Part shown: one piece after another, positions 42,340 through 49,485 of the stretch | Numbering within the stretch: the stretch's first letter is position 1 | Layout: each line of letters opens with the position of its first letter | DNA from: Pseudomonadota bacterium | GTDB taxonomy: Bacteria > Pseudomonadota > Gammaproteobacteria > UBA6429 > Thiohalophilaceae | Length of the DNA: 64,000 nt | Direction: 5' to 3' | Assembly: GCA_034190045.1 (NCBI GenBank) | Contig: JAXHTI010000001.1 | Location: forward strand, 2,658-66,657 | Notes under the pieces: model-generated | What the model saw: the letters and a program-made list of their open reading frames with translations, nothing else | What the model was told of the DNA's origin: nothing | Databases searched by the model: none | Translations under genes and position numbers: made by a program

Positions 42340-43362
42340 ATGGCTGAGCACGGAAATGACGCAAACAAGATCAAGCGCGACACGGAAGTCGAGGAAGACC
42401 TGGATGCACTTCCGGAAGAGGATGAGAATGCGGAAGAACTGGTCATGGGGGACGATGTGGACGACGACCCGGCTGATGCCGCGCCGATCGAAGAACCGCA
42501 TCGGTATGAGCCCGGCGTGATTCCCGAAGGTCAGCTCGACGCCACCCGTTTATACCTCAGCGAAATCGGCTATTCACCGCTGCTGACGGCCGACGAAGAA
42601 AAATTCTATTCGCGCAAGGCCCTCAAGGGCGATGAAGCCGCGCGCAAGAAAATGATCGAATCCAACCTGCGCCTGGTGGTCAAGATCGCGCGGCGTTATC
42701 TCAACCGAGGCCTGGCCCTGCTGGATCTGATCGAGGAGGGCAACCTGGGCCTGATTCGCGCGGTGGAAAAATTCGACCCCGAACGCGGCTTTCGCTTCTC
42801 CACCTACGCCACCTGGTGGATCCGCCAGACCATCGAGCGGGCCATCATGAACCAGACCCGCACCATCCGCCTGCCGATCCACGTGGTCAAGGAGATCAAC
42901 ATCTACCTGCGCGCGGCGCGGCATCTGTCGCAGACCCTGGACCATGAGCCGACCACCGAAGAAATCGCCGAGATGCTCGACAAGCCGATCGACGAGGTGA
43001 AAAAAATGCTCGGCCTCAACGAGCGCATCGCCTCGGTCGACTCGCCCATGGGCCACGACGCCGACAACTCCCTGCTCGATGCCATCCCCGACGAGAACAA
43101 CAGCGATCCCGTCACCATGCTGCAGGACGACGACGTCAAGGCCAACATCGAACAGTGGCTGGCGCAGCTCAGTGAGAAACAGCGCGAAGTGGTCGAGCGC
43201 CGCTTCGGCCTGCACGGCTATGACGTGGCCACGCTGGAAGAGGTGGGTAACACCATCGGTGTCACCCGCGAGCGGGTGCGGCAGATCCAGCTCGAAGCTT
43301 TGAAGAAGCTACGCGACATCCTCGAAAAAGACGGGTTCTCCGTCGACGCCCTGTTTAAATAG
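42340..43362 (+). CDS. rpoS: RNA polymerase sigma factor RpoS
   Basis: [61 protein letters not shown]; follows nlpD. Confidence 0.96.
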
Positions 43363-43376
43363 ACTCCTTCTTTCCT

Positions 43377-43992
43377 TTATTCCCTCTCCCCCTTGGGGAC
43401 AAATCTGCCGGGAGCAGATTTGAACAGCCAACGGCTGGCCCGCAGGGTGGAGGGCAGGACGCCCGTAATAGAGGGTTAGGGAGAGGGGGAGAGAAAAGGT
43501 TAGCCCTCCGGGCTGACTGAATCTTGAAAGCGTTGATTTTCTTTTGTGGGAGGCGCTTGTAGCGGCGACTGTCTGCCGATGCCCCCTGACTATCAAAGTG
43601 ATCGCTCTGCGGGCGAGCCTGAATTTTGAAAACGGGCTCTCGCACCTCAGACTTTATTCCCGCCCCTCCAAGGGGAGGGCCAGGGAGGGGTGATCAAGCA
43701 TCTAACCCTCTCTAAATGTTCGCCCTCCGGGCGCCCTGGATCTTGAAAGCGGGCTCTCGCGCCCGCGCGGCGAGTGACTTTTTGAAGCGGCAAAAAGTCA
43801 CCAAAAACCGCTCCCGAAAGACGCCGCCGGTATAGCAATTTATCAATTGCTACACCGGTCCCCTGTGCTTCTCGCTCCAGTCGGGCTCGCCCGACGGCAC
43901 GTCCCTGTGCCGTCGAGCGAGTGGCGGCATCCCTGCCGCCACCCTGCGGGCTGTTCCTCCTTTCACTGCGATGCTCGGCGGCGTCTAACGGG
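43377..43992. mobile_element. Cluster of REP/MITE-like palindromic elements
   Basis: Two TTATTCCC..CCC..GGGGAG..GGGAG.GGG palindromes (43377-43490, interrupted by a 71-bp insert; 43654-43690), a GTGGGAG-type arm at 43546, three TGRATYTTGAAARCG copies, and a multi-hairpin element at 43774-43985. Confidence 0.7.
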
Positions 43993-44135
43993 ATAAAAAC
44001 CGGCTAGCTATAGTTAGGGAAAACCCTGATATTGCAAGAAAAATTCTTATGTCGTGCGTCGAAAAATTGGGGAATGCTTGCTAGGATTAGGGGTATCTGT
44101 ATTTTCAGGCTTTAGCCGGGGATAGGCAGACGTCT

Positions 44136-44154
44136 GTCTAAATCACTGTTAGGC
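44136..44154 (+). other. Integron attI-like recombination site (simple site)
   Basis: GTCTAAA-TCACT-GTTAGGC has the L box / 5-nt spacer / GTTRRRY layout of attI1 (CCCTAAA-ACAAA-GTTRRRY) and lies 5 nt before the first cassette ATG. Confidence 0.65.
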
Positions 44155-44159
44155 ATAAA

Positions 44160-44624
44160 ATGAATTACACCGACTTTTTGAATCAGCTAGAGAAAAATGG
44201 ATTCGAATTCATCGGTAAAGCCCTTGCGTTTAAAGAGCTTGATAATTGGGTTATTGGGTACATCGGCTTAGGTGGGAGATTTCAACAAGCTGGAACAAAA
44301 GCTTTCGTGCTTTGTGCTAGACCCAAAGACTTTGGATTCATGGATGCTCCTAAAAAGAAATATGCAACTGAACCAATGGAGTATCCATACAAACTGACTC
44401 CTGATAGCTTTAATAAAAACCTAGAATATAACTCAGAGCTATTAAGATTCGATCATGGCAGAGTTGAAACAGAGGCAGATTGGTCAAGTGTATATAAAAT
44501 ATTAAACAATGAGCTACCAGAAGCACTTAAGAAACTTGGTGTGGCTGGTTTAGTAAAACAACTCGAAAAGCTGAAAGAACCTGGGTACGTAGAAAAAATA
44601 TGGCTTGGTGAAGAAAATTCCTAA
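44160..44624 (+). CDS. Gene cassette 1, hypothetical protein (154 aa, AT-rich)
   Basis: ORF starts just after GTTAGGC and its TAA stop lies inside the R'' box (TCCTAAC) of the next attC. Confidence 0.8.
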   Translation: MNYTDFLNQLEKNGFEFIGKALAFKELDNWVIGYIGLGGRFQQAGTKAFVLCARPKDFGFMDAPKKKYATEPMEYPYKLTPDSFNKNLEYNSELLRFDHGRVETEADWSSVYKILNNELPEALKKLGVAGLVKQLEKLKEPGYVEKIWLGEENS

Positions 44625-44699
44625 CAAGGCCGTAAACTCGGACGTATTTTTCGTTCGCTACGCTCACTACAAATACGCCGGTTACGGCTGGCGTTAGCT
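44619..44699 (+). other. Integron attC site (81 bp)
   Basis: R'' TCCTAAC, L'' CGT[A]AAC[T]CGG[A]CGTATTT pairing with AAATACG-CCG-GTT-ACG, R' GTTAGCT; three extrahelical bases as in canonical attC. Confidence 0.9.
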
Positions 44700-44711
44700 G
44701 CACAAAAGAAT

Positions 44712-45299
44712 ATGTACGAAAACTTTTTAGATAATTACAGAAAATATGCTCAGGCTGAAAATACACCTGATACAGACTTATTGAATAAAATTGAACCATA
44801 TGCCAAAGGTTTCTTTGAGTTAATGGCTAGTTATGGTGGCGCTACATTTAATGAAGGATTATATAGGCTTCACTCAGTCCAAGATATTTTAAAGTGGACG
44901 CGGCTTGTAGAGGAAGAATTTACAAGCTATAAAGACAGATTCATCTGCTTCGGATACGACTGGCTTGGGAGGCATTTTGCTCTTGATAAAAGCAGAGTAG
45001 AAAACAATCAAATGCTTATTCTTCTGTTCGAGCCAGGCGCAGGTGAAGTAATGCAAATTCCTGTCAATTTCGAATCTTTTCATAATGAAGAGCTTGCAGA
45101 ATATCAAAATGAAGCACTAGCAAGTGAATTTTATAAAGAGTGGAGAAGCGCTGGGGGCGAAAACCCCTCACACCCCCAATGTATTGGTTATAAAGTTCCT
45201 CTGTTTCTAAATGGTAGTGACACAGTAGATAATTTGGAACTTTCTGACATGGAAGTATATTGGTCAATATGTGGTCAGACATTAAATGCAAACAGTTAA
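44712..45299 (+). CDS. Gene cassette 2, Tdi1-like (DUF1851-type) T6SS/polymorphic-toxin immunity protein
   Basis: YGGATFNEGLYRLH, FGYDWLGRHF, CIGYKVPLFLNGSDTVDNLELSDMEVYW motif; begins after GTTAGCT and ends in AGTTAAC. Confidence 0.7.
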   Translation: MYENFLDNYRKYAQAENTPDTDLLNKIEPYAKGFFELMASYGGATFNEGLYRLHSVQDILKWTRLVEEEFTSYKDRFICFGYDWLGRHFALDKSRVENNQMLILLFEPGAGEVMQIPVNFESFHNEELAEYQNEALASEFYKEWRSAGGENPSHPQCIGYKVPLFLNGSDTVDNLELSDMEVYWSICGQTLNANS

Positions 45300-45307
45300 C
45301 AAGCAGG
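45294..45307 (+). other. Truncated attC (R'' box only) of cassette 2
   Basis: AGTTAAC complements the cassette's GTTAGCT core except at one base and contains the stop codon; no matching L'/R' arm follows. Confidence 0.5.
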
Positions 45308-45373
45308 AATTCTGGGCACAGTATACCTATTTCCAGGACTGAGACTTGACTGAGCTTTTATATTAGAACAAAA

Positions 45374-45419
45374 GACGTGATGCAGTGGTCACGGTTTGGG
45401 CGAATGCTGTCGCGCCGTG
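45374..45419 (+). pseudogene. 46-bp fragment of the YiiD_C/thioesterase gene
   Basis: 43/46 identical to 46651-46696 and 47788-47833. Confidence 0.85.
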
Positions 45420-45477
45420 ATAGCGTGAACAAGGGGTCAGAACACTTGAATCTGAAATTCTGCTATCAGCGAGTGAT

Positions 45478-45520
45478 CTGAGCGTTTGAGCTGACTTGAA
45501 CGCCTTGAGCGCCTTGAACG
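45478..45520. repeat. Half periodic element (TTGARCG units, ~9-bp period)
   Basis: CTGAGCGT-TTGAGCTGAC-TTGAACGCC-TTGAGCGCC-TTGAACG; no facing arm. Confidence 0.5.
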
Positions 45521-45573
45521 GCACCCGAAATTAACTATCTGGGGTTTCTGGGTTTATCTTTAGGAGGTTATCT

Positions 45574-46224
45574 GTGAGTATTCTTCAAGGGACTGTCTAT
45601 AAATTATTATTTCTGTTTTTATGTTTGATTTTTCTCTCTTCTTGTATGACAAGTTATATGCTGGAAGAGGGAGATTATACCGAGGAGGTGTCAAGTTTTC
45701 TTGTTACTGAAGATGGCAGAAGGATGGTGATAATTGGTAATGACTACCACTATGTTTTCAAGATTGATAATAATCTACATAAAATCCTGATGTCGAAAAA
45801 CCGAAAATTTGTTAGACCGAATTTTTGGGGATTTAAGGTGGATGTTGATAATCGAATTACCGGTAATTACAGGTTGTTCGTAAAACCCGAGACCAGAGAA
45901 AGAGCTGAATGGTTTGTCGCTGCCGGCTTCTCTGAGCTTGCAAATAGAAAAGGTAATGAGAGTGAGTTGCACTTTACAGGGGGAATAAAAGGTATCAGAT
46001 ACAGGGCAATAGAAGAGATACCAGCAAAATATAAATTCAATAAAACCTATGAGATCAATATCACGGAAGAAGATGGTGGTATGGAAACAGTCACCAAGAA
46101 ATTATTTAGCCCCGTCACCGCGACAGCAGATGGTGTCCTGGTAATAGGTGGATTTGCGCTATTTGTTTCCTTTTATATGCTTATGGCTTTTACAGGGAAT
46201 TGTGATAACCCGGATATGTGTTAG
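45574..46224 (+). CDS. Putative lipoprotein, hypothetical
   Basis: AGGAGG RBS, GTG start, hydrophobic leader with lipobox LSSC, C-terminal hydrophobic segment. Confidence 0.7.
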   Translation: MSILQGTVYKLLFLFLCLIFLSSCMTSYMLEEGDYTEEVSSFLVTEDGRRMVIIGNDYHYVFKIDNNLHKILMSKNRKFVRPNFWGFKVDVDNRITGNYRLFVKPETRERAEWFVAAGFSELANRKGNESELHFTGGIKGIRYRAIEEIPAKYKFNKTYEINITEEDGGMETVTKKLFSPVTATADGVLVIGGFALFVSFYMLMAFTGNCDNPDMC

Positions 46225-46338
46225 TGAAAGTAATAGCTTCTGGTTAACAATATCTGGCCAATTTATTCTGCTAATTTAAGACAAATTATACCCGCTCCTG
46301 AAACTTCGAAATGACGCGCCTCATGAAATAACAAGGGA

Positions 46339-46752
46339 ATGTCAGTGCTACAGAATGAACTTGAAGCCTACCTCCACGAACACATCCCGCTGTCAAAAGC
46401 GATGGCGGTGTCGGTGGTGGGGCCGGGGCCGGAGAATATTGTATTGAGTGCACCACTGGCGCCGAATATCAATCATCGCGAGACGGTGTTTGGCGGTAGT
46501 GCGTCGGCGCTGGCGACGCTGGCGGCGTGGTCGTTGTTGCACGTCAGGCTTCGCAGTGAGGGTTTCACCAGTCGCCTGGTCATTCAGCGCAATATGATGG
46601 AGTATGATTTGCCGATTGATGGGACGTTTACGGCGCGGGCGTCGATGGAGGACGTGACGCAGTGGTCAAGGTTTGTGCGAATGCTGTCGCGCCGTGGCAA
46701 GGCCCAAGTGGCGGGGTCAGGTCTTGCGTTTTGCCTTATAGGTAGAAAATGA
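46339..46752 (+). pseudogene. 3'-truncated duplicate of the YiiD_C/thioesterase gene
   Basis: Near-identical to 47476-47842 up to 46705, then runs into a GGGGTCAGGTCTTGC motif. Confidence 0.8.
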
Positions 46753-46804
46753 CCAGAAGTAGCTGGGTCAAGTCTTGCGTTTTGTCTTATAGGTAGAAAA
46801 TGAC
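46714..46804 (+). repeat. 40-bp direct repeat x2 (51-bp period)
   Basis: GGGTCAGGTCTTGCGTTTTGCCTTATAGGTAGAAAATGAC (46714-46753) and GGGTCAAGTCTTGCGTTTTGTCTTATAGGTAGAAAATGAC (46765-46804). Confidence 0.85.
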
Positions 46805-46873
46805 GGTGCCTGGAGCGGTAGTGGGTTTCAATAAATGGTCGATATCTTTCGAATGAATAATTGCAGGTCGAAT

Positions 46874-47395
46874 ATGAATGTTTATCTTAAAGCCAAGCAT
46901 TGGCAGCTGTTTACTGTATTTTTCGGGTTGATTATTCTTGGTCAATCCCTCATGGCTTCTTCAATAATTAATGGTGATGCCTTTAATCCTCTTCTTTTAA
47001 TGATTCCAACATTAATTGTTGGCATGGTCTTCTTCGGATGGTTGTGGGCGATCGCCACTGCTTGCTCAAAAGTGCTTCCGAATGAACTATATTCTTCCCC
47101 TGGGTTCATGAGAGCCGGGCTGATTTATGCCCTGGTTTATGTTGTATTTAGTGGCGTGTTTTTCTTCGGTTCAGGGCCTGAGTTTCCGGGTTATATGATT
47201 ATCATGCATCTTCTGGCTATGGCGGCTATTTTCTATGCCCTTGGTTTCACTGCAAAGCAGCTTACCAAGTTAGAGCAAAAAAAAGACGTGTCATTTTATA
47301 ATTATTCCGGACCATTTTTTCTGTTTTGGTTTTTCCCTGTTGGTGTGTGGTTTATACAGCCAAAAGTTAACCAGCTGCTTGGTGAGAAGCCGTGA
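46874..47395 (+). CDS. Integral membrane protein, hypothetical (cassette-like, AT-rich)
   Basis: About five hydrophobic segments, AKHWQLF N-terminus, FFPVGVWFIQP C-terminus; ORF open from 46835. Confidence 0.75.
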   Translation: MNVYLKAKHWQLFTVFFGLIILGQSLMASSIINGDAFNPLLLMIPTLIVGMVFFGWLWAIATACSKVLPNELYSSPGFMRAGLIYALVYVVFSGVFFFGSGPEFPGYMIIMHLLAMAAIFYALGFTAKQLTKLEQKKDVSFYNYSGPFFLFWFFPVGVWFIQPKVNQLLGEKP

Positions 47396-47481
47396 TGATA
47401 GCTGGCGAAATTCTGGGGGCAGCACACCTGTTGTCAAAGCTAAATATTGATTAAGTATTATACTATAATAAGGGAATATCA

Positions 47482-47940
47482 GTGCTACAGAACGAACTTG
47501 AAGCCTACCTCCACGAACACATCCCGCTGTCAAAAGCGATGGCGGTGTCGGTGGTGGAGCCGGGGCCGGAGAATATTGTATTGAGTGCACCACTGGCGCC
47601 GAATATCAATCATCGCGAGACGGTGTTTGGCGGTAGTGCGTCGGCGCTGGCGACGCTGGCGGCGTGGTCGTTGTTGCACGTCAGGCTTCGCAGTGAGGGT
47701 TTCACCAGTCGCCTGGTCATTCAGCGCAATATGATGGAGTATGATTTGCCGATTGACGGGACGTTTACGGCGCGGGCGTCGATGGAGGACGTGACGCAGT
47801 GGTCAAGGTTTGTGCGAATGCTGTCGCGCCGTGGCAAGGCCCGGGTGGCTGTAACGTCGGTGCTGGCGTATAACGGGCAGGTGGCGGGGCGTTTTTCCGG
47901 CGAGTTTGTTGCTTTTGGTGGTGTTCCTGCTAATGGTTGA
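47482..47940 (+). CDS. YiiD C-terminal-like hotdog thioesterase
   Basis: YLHEHIPLSKAMAV, APLAPNINHRETVFGGSASALATLAAW, GRFSGEFV. Confidence 0.8.
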   Translation: MLQNELEAYLHEHIPLSKAMAVSVVEPGPENIVLSAPLAPNINHRETVFGGSASALATLAAWSLLHVRLRSEGFTSRLVIQRNMMEYDLPIDGTFTARASMEDVTQWSRFVRMLSRRGKARVAVTSVLAYNGQVAGRFSGEFVAFGGVPANG

Positions 47941-48098
47941 CTGGCTGGTCGGGCTATCCAGGAATGGGAGTATTCAGGCTGATTTCAAAATATTCCTGCT
48001 TAGAGCGCAGAGTATACTGGATTTGTAAAACTGTTCATTTCTGCCGGTCTGTTATTTTGCGCTGGCAGATTTATTTAACACAGGGTAGGGAGGCCGTC

Positions 48099-48557
48099 AT
48101 GTTACAACAATTCAGGTTGATTCCGTTTGTCCTGGGCTTGCTTATGTTAGCTCTGAGTGTTCCGGGCTGCACGGTTCGCTATGTGGCGGATTACGATGCA
48201 GAGGTCAAAGCGGAGATTCTGCGGATTGCCAAAGAGGTGGATCTGTTCTGGGGGCGCTTGCTGGATACGCATTCGGACGAGCGGCAGTATACGAAATTTC
48301 AGGCGGACTATAACCGGATCGAGTCGGATCTGCGTAATCTTGTAATGCGCAACGAGATTCGCCCTCTCAATGAGTTATCCACCGAGCAGTCGCAGATTGC
48401 GCTGGATCTCTGGATCGGTGACAAGTCCAGTCACAAGGAGAATGACACGATTTCCGATTTCATTGCCCGTCGTCACCGTCAGCAATACGTCCGGGTTTTT
48501 GTTGCCATGGCGAAAGGCGAGATAGCCAAGGAATCAACGCAGGAAAATAACAACTGA
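48099..48557 (+). CDS. Putative lipoprotein, hypothetical
   Basis: GGAGG RBS before ATG 48099, lipobox VPGC, helical body. Confidence 0.7.
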   Translation: MLQQFRLIPFVLGLLMLALSVPGCTVRYVADYDAEVKAEILRIAKEVDLFWGRLLDTHSDERQYTKFQADYNRIESDLRNLVMRNEIRPLNELSTEQSQIALDLWIGDKSSHKENDTISDFIARRHRQQYVRVFVAMAKGEIAKESTQENNN

Positions 48558-48581
48558 CACTTGACATCAAGGAGGTGAGTC

Positions 48582-48890
48582 ATGGATATCGAAGCGATTT
48601 TGAAGCAGATGGTGGCCGCGGCCAATGACGCCGTCGAGGGTGATGTGGGGGAGATCACCGACTACGCGAAGCAGATTGTCGAACAGCAGAAACAGTCACT
48701 GGAGGAGCTGGCCAAAGCACGCATCAGCGGCGAAATAGATGATGATGTATTCGAACAGGAAGTGGAACGGGAAAAGCAGGTGGTGAAAGCCCAACTGCTG
48801 GCCGTGCAGATTATGACCGAAGCCGCTGCGCAAAAGGCGGTCAATGCCGCCATCGATACATTCAAAAATGCCGTTAAAACGATTATTTAG
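48582..48890 (+). CDS. Small acidic all-helical hypothetical protein
   Basis: [10 protein letters not shown], clean 102-aa ORF in the operon. Confidence 0.75.
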   Translation: MDIEAILKQMVAAANDAVEGDVGEITDYAKQIVEQQKQSLEELAKARISGEIDDDVFEQEVEREKQVVKAQLLAVQIMTEAAAQKAVNAAIDTFKNAVKTII

Positions 48891-48933
48891 TTACCGGTGG
48901 ATTCCTGGTGGATTCATTTTCTGAGGGATTAAT

Positions 48934-49485
48934 GTGATATATCGATATTTATTGGTGATAGCCATTGTTTTGCTGTCGGGTTGTGCCGGGTTGCGCAGTC
49001 CGGAAGAGACGCGTGTCACGGTCAGCGAGTTGCTGGATCAGATTCAGATCGCGATCAATGAAATCGAAGCGCAAACCAGCGGCAGGTCGCTGCCTGGATT
49101 CAAGTACGCTGAAATTACCTTGTCGACCAGTGCAAAGGGGGCAAAAGAAGCATCCGGTAATTTTGTTCTATCGGGTGAGGGAAAGTGGAGCAGGACTAAA
49201 TCCAATACGCTGATTCTTGTGTTGACGCCGGATAAGTCCGGTAAAAAACTCACATCAGCCGCAACTGGCCGGCAACTGGCCGAATATGTGATCGGTGCGG
49301 TCGATGCGATCGACCGAAATAATCAGCTGGCGTTGAAAAAGCTGGTCATCGAAACCGGGTTTAATGTGACGACAGATAAGGCAGGGGGGCTGGAGATTGA
49401 AGTTGTGGGTATATCGGCAGGTGGGAAGCTCTCCACGACCTCCAGCAACAGCCATACCCTGAAACTCGTTTTTGAAAATCATTAA
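48934..49485 (+). CDS. Lipoprotein with tandem Trypco2-like domains
   Basis: Lipobox LSGC; two helix + beta-hairpin units (VSELLDQIQIAI...AEITLST...SNTLILVLTP; LAEYVIGAV...LVIETGFNV...SHTLKLVF). Confidence 0.5.
   Translation: MIYRYLLVIAIVLLSGCAGLRSPEETRVTVSELLDQIQIAINEIEAQTSGRSLPGFKYAEITLSTSAKGAKEASGNFVLSGEGKWSRTKSNTLILVLTPDKSGKKLTSAATGRQLAEYVIGAVDAIDRNNQLALKKLVIETGFNVTTDKAGGLEIEVVGISAGGKLSTTSSNSHTLKLVFENH

Follow-up and report, generated by a model that had tools for sequence, protein, structure and literature searches.

Homology-facilitated illegitimate recombination (HFIR), in which one end of a linear DNA is homologous to the recipient and the other is joined illegitimately, so that foreign DNA comes to lie beside a conserved anchor, is said to occur in Acinetobacter, Pseudomonas stutzeri and Streptococcus pneumoniae. 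The term CALIN (clusters of attC sites lacking integron integrases) is reportedly applied to attC clusters without an integron integrase, and prophage e14 and phage 21 sit in icd, where the insert supplies a substitute gene end. HFIR has also been observed in E. coli conjugation (PMC3240628). Repetitive extragenic palindromic (REP) sequences, hairpin-forming REP doublets (REPINs) and the REP-associated tyrosine transposases (RAYTs) make up a further system of relevance here (PMC3116915, PMC8266576), of which TnpA_REP cleaves and recombines single-stranded REP DNA in vitro (PMC8266576); in class 1 integrons linked to ISCR1 (an insertion sequence (IS) common region element), the 3'-conserved segment is partially duplicated, and an HUH enzyme together with homologous recombination has been invoked (PMC3575428). 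Here we compare these systems with the edge of a cassette array in a 64,000-nucleotide stretch of a Pseudomonadota genome (GenBank assembly GCA_034190045.1, contig JAXHTI010000001.1, positions 2,658 to 66,657; herein referred to as the window), where an intact thioesterase gene (TE) is preceded by two incomplete copies of itself, each followed by a foreign gene. The whole is best explained by serial HFIR-like one-sided recombination at the array edge, a reading to which we assign a probability of roughly 0.55. No known system matches this locus in all respects: its modules have neither transposase nor integrase, its break points vary and the head of its REP sequences is not GTAG.

The window belongs to a Thiohalophilus metagenome-assembled genome (MAG; 331 contigs, 3.08 Mb, 95.9% complete). 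Across the genus the gene order surE-pcm-dedA-nlpD-rpoS-TE is kept and the gap between rpoS and TE is variable, from 170 bp (genome G008) up to the 4.1 kb of the window; this interval is a hotspot with an integrase-less, integron-type cassette array. Read from left to right, the far part of the array consists of the second cassette (cas2), a REP singlet of the M type (M1), a leader remnant, TE relic 1, an H2-type REP, a lipoprotein gene, a leader and TE relic 2, followed by two H-type REP arms, a membrane protein gene, a second M singlet (M2), a leader and the full TE (table 1). An earlier note, made from the letters of this DNA alone, had proposed three serial TE copies with foreign genes between them, and all are indeed present. 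The full gene carries a Pfam YiiD_C domain (PF09500; 149.8 bits, 6.7e-44). Copy 2 aligns to 47465-47849 over 385 bp at 98.2% identity, with an offset of 1137 bp, and keeps the start codon (open reading frame (ORF) 46339-46752, 137 aa; partial YiiD_C, profile positions 2-120 of 144). Copy 1 has three mismatches (93% identity) to either other copy, was found at E 1.2e-11 in a whole-genome search and has this genome's own TE as its nearest allele; because a leader remnant precedes it, this relic must once have been longer, running from the TE start, and has lost nt 1-306 by internal deletion.

Table 1. Features at the far end of the rpoS-TE interval, in positions of the window.
Feature	Position	Strand	Remarks
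Multicopy GC-rich "platform" repeat	43376..44154	+	attI-like end GTCTGTCTAAATCACTGTTAGGC at 44132-44154; heads the array downstream of rpoS
Two integron-type cassettes	44160..45299	+	cas1 44160-44624; cas2 44712-45299, Tdi1/SUKH-like
REP singlet M1 (GAATTCTGGGCACAGTATACCTATTTCC)	45307..45334	+	
Remnant of TE leader type B'	45335..45373	+	homologous to the leader before the G006 TE relic
TE relic 1 (copy 1)	45374..45419	+	TE nt 307-352, 46 bp
H2-type REP hairpin, head GGGGTCAGAACACTTGAAT	45433..45484	+	left edge of module 2
Cargo 1: AT-rich lipoprotein gene	45574..46224	+	lipobox LSSC
TE relic 2 (copy 2)	46328..46712	+	17 nt leader and TE nt 1 to ~368
Two decayed H-type REP left arms	46713..46804	+	46713-46753 and 46764-46804; left edge of module 3
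Cargo 2: AT-rich membrane protein gene	46874..47395	+	
REP singlet M2, diverged (GAAATTCTGGGGGCAGCACACCTGTTGTC)	47407..47435	+	
Intact TE with 17 nt shared leader	47465..47940	+	coding sequence 47482-47940, 152 aa

Copy 1 departs from TE after ...CGCCGTG (TE nt 352), whereas copy 2 extends past this CGCCGTG by 9 nt without a mismatch, or by 16 nt with two mismatches, to about nt 361-368. The motif GGGGTCAG then begins 13 nt past copy 1 (at 45433) and 16 nt past the CGCCGTG of copy 2 (at 46713), a spacing that the note had described correctly. Its claim of a common stop point holds in part, in that the position is roughly shared in the window; the two breaks lie 9-16 nt apart, however, and in two related loci (genome G006 and locus L170, both described below) the TE break is at nt 76-78.

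The gene that follows each incomplete copy is AT-rich, as had been recognized from the letters (GC 0.37-0.43 vs. ~0.58 in the surroundings), and each module contains only this one small cargo gene, with no transposase ORF between 43362 and 47482. The lipoprotein finds itself and one Logan contig as database matches and nothing else. For the membrane protein there are 99 homologues (closest non-self match 72% identity), one of which is the second cassette beside intI in the Bowmanella dokdonensis integron and has attC on both sides; in the window no attC was seen around either the lipoprotein or the membrane protein gene (attC sites, R'' RYYYAAC ... R' GTTRRRY, were judged by eye throughout, without an attC model). 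Exact-protein look-ups for TE, in its truncated and full forms, and for the membrane protein (173 and 186 aa forms) gave no match.

Homology between copy 2 and copy 3 (the full TE) is confined to positions -17 to about +368, and the leaders upstream of -17 are unrelated, so module 3 did not arise as a tandem copy made locally but arrived with upstream DNA of its own. Each module carries its own leader and TE 5' end; the duplication therefore represents imported homology rather than the target duplication by an inserting element that the earlier note had envisaged. REP sequences are join points of tandem duplications in enterobacteria, and had the TE 5' region been duplicated locally in tandem, through slippage or through unequal crossing-over and perhaps at REPs, with cargo insertion and deletions to follow, such a history would agree with the 98% identity of copies 2 and 3 and with the 51-bp H units, which are tandemly duplicated themselves. 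It would leave the unrelated leaders unexplained, as well as the different alleles of relic and full gene in G006, a cargo that is foreign by composition and membrane protein homologues in other taxa, and it needs more steps; we consider this course of events very unlikely.

The locus in genome G006 bears most directly on how a module may arrive. There, M1, a leader and TE nt 1-78 are followed directly by M2, a leader and the full TE. The full gene agrees with the allele of genome G001 at 20 of the 22 informative sites in nt 1-92 and, from nt 279 onwards and beyond the end of the gene, with that of G002 at nearly every site (~30/31 from nt 420), and the relic is G002-like, such that relic and full gene are different alleles. 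Comparison of these alleles fits one import of a G001-like fragment beginning at the M2 edge, which would have been joined to the resident gene at nt 78 on its left and would have undergone a homologous crossover between nt 92 and 279 on its right. This is the pattern expected of HFIR, and among the loci compared a one-sided crossover is seen in G006 only, where the mosaic allele also dates it; at L170 the corresponding comparison gave no clear mosaic. Anchoring on the side of rpoS would be a less economical route than a single import of this kind. A circle that ended at the relic break and entered by Campbell integration was also considered and is excluded for G006, as the donor tract passes nt 78. 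Compared with locus L286, its nearest relative, the TE of the window is a mosaic too (92-95% identity in nt 281-400 and 77-83% in nt 1-120), and its nt 1-120 resemble the GTG-start allele of G002 and locus L291.

We propose that the joints in the window share the origin suggested for G006. DNA from a closely related strain would have recombined at the far edge of the array at least twice, probably following DNA uptake; ComEC and DprA are encoded in the genome, although both are widespread and lend this route weak support. On the right side, ordinary homologous recombination would have taken place inside or beyond TE, and on the left side, where there is no homology, the incoming end would have been joined illegitimately inside the resident TE, at nt 352 and later at about nt 361-368. 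The incoming piece would have had a REP hairpin on the far left, followed by one foreign gene and then by a leader with a fresh TE 5' part, and the DNA ahead of that TE would have included a clear M singlet in the later piece and a weak M-like stretch in the earlier one. In each round TE would stay intact and its displaced 5' part would be left behind as a relic, and repetition would yield the order relic, cargo, relic, cargo, gene. The left ends of the incoming DNA may be set by REPs, either through RAYT nicking or through hairpins that protect single-strand ends; a direct RAYT role is doubtful.

In having one end of linear DNA homologous and the other illegitimate, with foreign DNA beside a conserved anchor, these events resemble HFIR, and the G006 mosaic fits that likeness. 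They differ from it in that the process is here deduced from natural scars and is serial, in that the illegitimate joint lies inside the anchor gene and leaves a relic, and in that REP edges are found at 4/6 joints. An intact gene with its displaced end kept as a relic is also what e14 and phage 21 produce; those insertions use an integrase and a fixed crossover, whereas here there is no integrase and the breaks vary. Transformation merodiploids, produced when repeats pair in alternative ways, likewise arise by uptake of same-species DNA and contain partial duplications bounded by repeats, but they are large tandem duplications of resident DNA without foreign cargo (PMC3784515).

The earlier note had explained the locus by an element that repeatedly hits one spot in TE. 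This proposal finds no support in the varying breaks, in the homologous recombination on one side indicated by the G006 mosaic or in the lack of any TE 3' remnant after the REPs of the window (local alignment p = 0.14-0.82). The last result also makes a simple REP insertion into TE unlikely, as no such remnant follows either REP.

The same layout is found in other genomes and at other genes. Locus L170, a JGI metagenome contig, has a relic of TE nt 1-76, a REP hairpin split by an IS3 element, attC-bounded cassettes, M and the full TE; its sister contig, L287, is without the relic and differs to the left of IS3. At the end of another array, in genome G007 (G007:C1), a 243-bp relic (88%) of a carbonic anhydrase 3' end is followed by H, an outer membrane protein-like gene, H and the full gene, and at G007:C2 the order is a relic of 157 bp (83%) from the mfd 3' end, a GGDEF-EAL gene, a REP with M and the full mfd. 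This scar is seen at three array boundaries and in no fewer than four genomes, and in the carbonic anhydrase case REPs bracket the cargo. In every case the duplicated part is the array-proximal end of the conserved flank, in either gene orientation; that this end is duplicated whichever way the gene points implies a process that concerns the array boundary and not the thioesterase. Relic-free loci occur as well (G001, G003, G008, L286, L287 and L291).

The assembly itself requires scrutiny, given that the copies are nearly identical. Logan contig L168 (run SRR24907501) equals window 44127-46386 at 100%; it runs from cas1 and cas2 through relic 1 and the lipoprotein gene into copy 2, of which it includes the first 59 nt with the variants private to that copy, so that relic 1 and its joints are independently supported. 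A second Logan contig of the same run equals window 47813-48895 at 100%. Both contigs end exactly 30 nt past copy-specific differences (46356 and 47843), as a k=31 graph does at a true repeat, and both continuations of the TE repeat are present in this one sample. Copies 2 and 3 are identical over at most 198 bp at a stretch, and this genome (G000) has many pairs of contigs that match each other end to end at 90-97% identity (such as C64/C85, C177/C178 and C219/C220). About 18 of its contigs also contain an exact 121-bp direct repeat, 221 bp apart (C2:33448-33789, C57:21424-21765, C277:7284-7625), which looks like a scaffolding artefact (an unmerged overlap with ~100 N) and spans an N-run in C277, the sole contig inspected.

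It is conceivable that the locus is itself an artefact of assembly or strain mixture, in which a lipoprotein gene-TE variant and a membrane protein gene-TE variant, or a chromosome and a 1137-bp circle or tandem array, were threaded together via TE. A 331-contig MAG with many 90-97% contig pairs and scaffolding artefacts would be prone to this, as would a 198-bp identical run at both ends of which the Logan contigs break. Even so, some molecule has to contain the junction between TE (~nt 368) and H, a single run yields both branch types, an independent contig free of repeats encloses relic 1, and each variant would still carry a relic and a full gene. Relic structures are moreover found in G006 and G007, whose assemblies consist of 20 contigs and are scored as 100% complete, and the phenomenon is therefore independent of this MAG; we regard an artefact as distinctly unlikely. 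In practice, the TE repeat will break or mislead short-read assemblies of the locus.

As an 8-mer, GGGGTCAG is near chance in this genome (130 matches in 3.08 Mb vs. roughly 94 or more expected), and its longer form GGGGTCAG(G/A)TCTTG occurs twice. It is the conserved head, GGGG(A/T)CAG in its shared form, of four or more REP families, and the note was thus right to take it as the mark of a real repeat. We classify these repeats as REP sequences because H, M and two further types each flank a RAYT gene as inverted copies in sister genomes. The H family (GGGGTCAGGTCTTGCCTTTTGCC, a 54-nt palindrome) has 7, 13 and 8 copies in G000, G007 and G006, respectively, and none with a reversed control; the H2 family (GGGGTCAGAWCACTTGAA) is present in 8/9 genus genomes (control, 2 matches) and the M family (AATTCCGGGGACAGTATACCTATTT) in 11/41 family genomes (reversed control, 1 match). 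Two further GGGG-headed types are GGGGTCAGAGTAAAAACTC and AAAGGGGTCAAAGCCCTTTAC. The earlier note had recommended a search for motif-flanked transposases, and this did recover RAYT genes (IS200-like Y1 HUH) flanked by GGGGTCAGGTCTTGCC and related repeats: inverted copies of H at G001:C3:795083, of REP3 at G003:C56, of REP4 at G007:C8 and of M at G007:C10 and G056:C349. All of these REP-flanked RAYT genes exceed the Pfam Y1_Tnp cut-off, and four RAYTs are 215-236 aa long and 30-62% identical among themselves. In the window's own genome, only an IS200 fragment and a short RAYT associated with another REP are encoded.

In the window, the H2 hairpin is predicted to fold at -12.2 kcal/mol (z = -3.0; z = -4.8 for an intact H), and the two H copies, at z = -0.2, have lost the ability to fold. 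The H arms are 51 bp apart from start to start, within a 51-bp direct repeat (46706-46753 / 46757-46804). M singlets are unfolded alone, and M forms hairpins only as REPIN doublets. An M followed by a leader lies ahead of TE in G001, G003, G006, G007, L170, L286 and L291; in the window a singlet precedes relic 1 and the full TE, and relic 2 has a weak M-like stretch before it (46235-46268), a degenerate M candidate that is too weak to be relied on. The possibility that M is part of an attC was rejected, since in L291 M comes after an attC that is already complete, and since RAYT genes are flanked by M. Like the described REP/REPIN-RAYT systems (PMC3116915, PMC8266576), these repeats are multicopy and mostly intergenic, their inverted copies flank single RAYT genes (REPtrons), doublets form hairpins, and IS3-family elements are inserted in them. 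They differ in their head, which is GGGG(A/T)CAG and not GTAG (PMC8266576): the conserved GTAG 5' of the palindrome is absent, and the one place where GTAG does occur is the distal end of full M units. They differ also in that four RAYT paralogues have distinct REP bodies with one head, and in that the REPs occur in cassette arrays and at rearrangement joints.

Two further observations concern these repeats. IS3-family elements, whole or decayed, lie inside GGGG-headed REP hairpins at G000 C287:1-1200 and L170:369-1625, and in C287 a truncated IS3 orfA fragment is enclosed by two repeat copies. A second REP family (GTGGGAGGCGATTTCATCGGCGAC / TGTAGGAGGGGCTTTCAGCCGCGAC) is present in the window (43495-43763 and 43545-43577), flanks the short RAYT in C331:6300-7300 and is found downstream of rpoS in several genomes.

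A REP 5' edge lies 0-13 nt past all four TE relics (H2, H, M2 and H3), and REP edges also truncate the cas2 attC, the IS3 orfA in C287 and the platform repeat in G003; their position at joints is more regular than chance joining. On these grounds a mobilization by RAYTs has to be weighed, in which nicking of TE at a pseudo-site, and of a GGGGTCAG-headed REP at its 5' edge, would free units composed of REP, cargo, M, leader and TE 5' part, and these units, single-stranded or circular, would re-integrate by strand transfer or homology, akin to one-ended rolling-circle capture by IS91/ISCR elements. RAYTs with these REPs exist in the genus, an enzyme of this kind, TnpA_REP, cleaves and rejoins REP DNA in vitro (PMC8266576), and the near-coincident breaks at nt 352 and 361-368 would suit a pseudo-site. 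The G006 import, however, passes the relic breakpoint, which would be impossible for a circle ending there, the window's H copies are decayed, and no common target sequence is seen at the joints. With the two further difficulties given next, namely the missing RAYT and the REP-less joints, this mobilization is possible but doubtful.

Several of our observations weigh against serial HFIR-like recombination as well. The window's two joints come without a donor sequence and hence without a microhomology score, and their breaks, which lie within 9-16 nt of one another and each have a GGGGTCAG-headed REP after them, are more regular than random illegitimate joining would predict. No H- or M-type RAYT is present in the window's own genome assembly, and no REP occurs at the carbonic anhydrase and mfd relic joints of G007, a result that lends no support to a motif-ended element either. 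Natural transformation in the genus is an assumption here, copies 2 and 3 stand in the order in which the assembler resolved the 198-bp identical stretch, and two or more related strains seem to be mixed in the MAG bin.

The array to which these modules have been added is of integron type. A classical attC at 44619-44699 belongs to cas1, making it an attC-bounded cassette, and the attC of cas2 ends after R'' (AGTTAACAAGCAGG, 45294-45307), the point where M1 starts. The earlier note had described a disabled integron alongside the TE copies, and this is borne out: no integron integrase was found in the genome, where the best TIGR02249 match reaches 88 bits vs. a cut-off of 265. Like CALIN, the array has promoterless AT-rich cassettes with attC and no intI; it differs in the two modules without recognizable attC, which lie beyond its attC-bounded part. 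A promoter scan of the locus gave no more sites than shuffled sequence. The resemblance to ISCR1-linked class 1 integrons (PMC3575428) is that non-cassette cargo lies at the distal end of an array between a truncated and a second copy of the flank; here, in contrast, there is no ISCR or IS91 transposase gene, the flank is a chromosomal housekeeping-type gene and the boundaries are REPs. Recombination between attC and secondary sites by an integron integrase acting in trans could in principle have put cassettes into TE, given the classical attC in the array, the membrane protein that is a cassette gene elsewhere and the G006 break at G|TT. No intI was found, however, and neither attC nor a GTT core is present at the window joints; circles excised by IntI are moreover without flanking gene DNA and hence unable to duplicate TE, which makes this explanation scarcely credible.

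HFIR and REP/RAYT activity are known mainly from laboratory assays, and clear natural footprints of either are scarce. The locus suggests that orphan cassette arrays could keep gaining genes without an integrase and that REP sequences may shape the sites at which foreign DNA is joined. A broader proposition, which we hold to be unlikely, is that such arrays have a second, integrase-independent mode of growth at their far end, where REP-bounded modules would use the array-proximal flank as a homologous "attachment site", with one end set by RAYT nicking or REP hairpins and RecA-type recombination at the other. If true, modules could hop between strains without inactivating the flank gene, and could loop out as circles via direct repeats.

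The surroundings of the joints are variable as well. The platform repeat, ~330 bp in length, opens the rpoS-TE gap; there are ~10 or more copies in this genome, where it forms the 5' edge of at least five AT-rich arrays, and 11-19 copies in each of G001, G006 and G007. A search of window 43000-48200, platform repeat included, against Rfam gave no match at E <= 1. At C269:1-2300 of this genome, an AT-rich three-gene array lies between inverted 330-bp platform copies, in the manner of a composite element, and the same bracketing by inverted copies is seen at G006:C8:693900-697030. At locus L325 (G001:C3:526590-530910), a 902-bp direct repeat (98.4%, 3.4 kb apart, platform copies included) represents a tandem-like duplication of the platform and adjoining DNA. 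Downstream of TE, window 48099-49485 contains three genes, d1-d3 (one with a Trypco2 domain), before a conserved 155-aa gene; L286 has them, G008 has them in part and G002, G006, G007 and L170 lack them, and since their presence varies among relatives, the downstream side of TE is variable too. Finally, at ~187.5-189.5 kb of L014 (G006:C14) a 437-aa reverse-transcriptase ORF lies on the opposite strand inside the rpoS-TE cassette array; it appears group II intron-like by eye and could be an attC-targeting intron.

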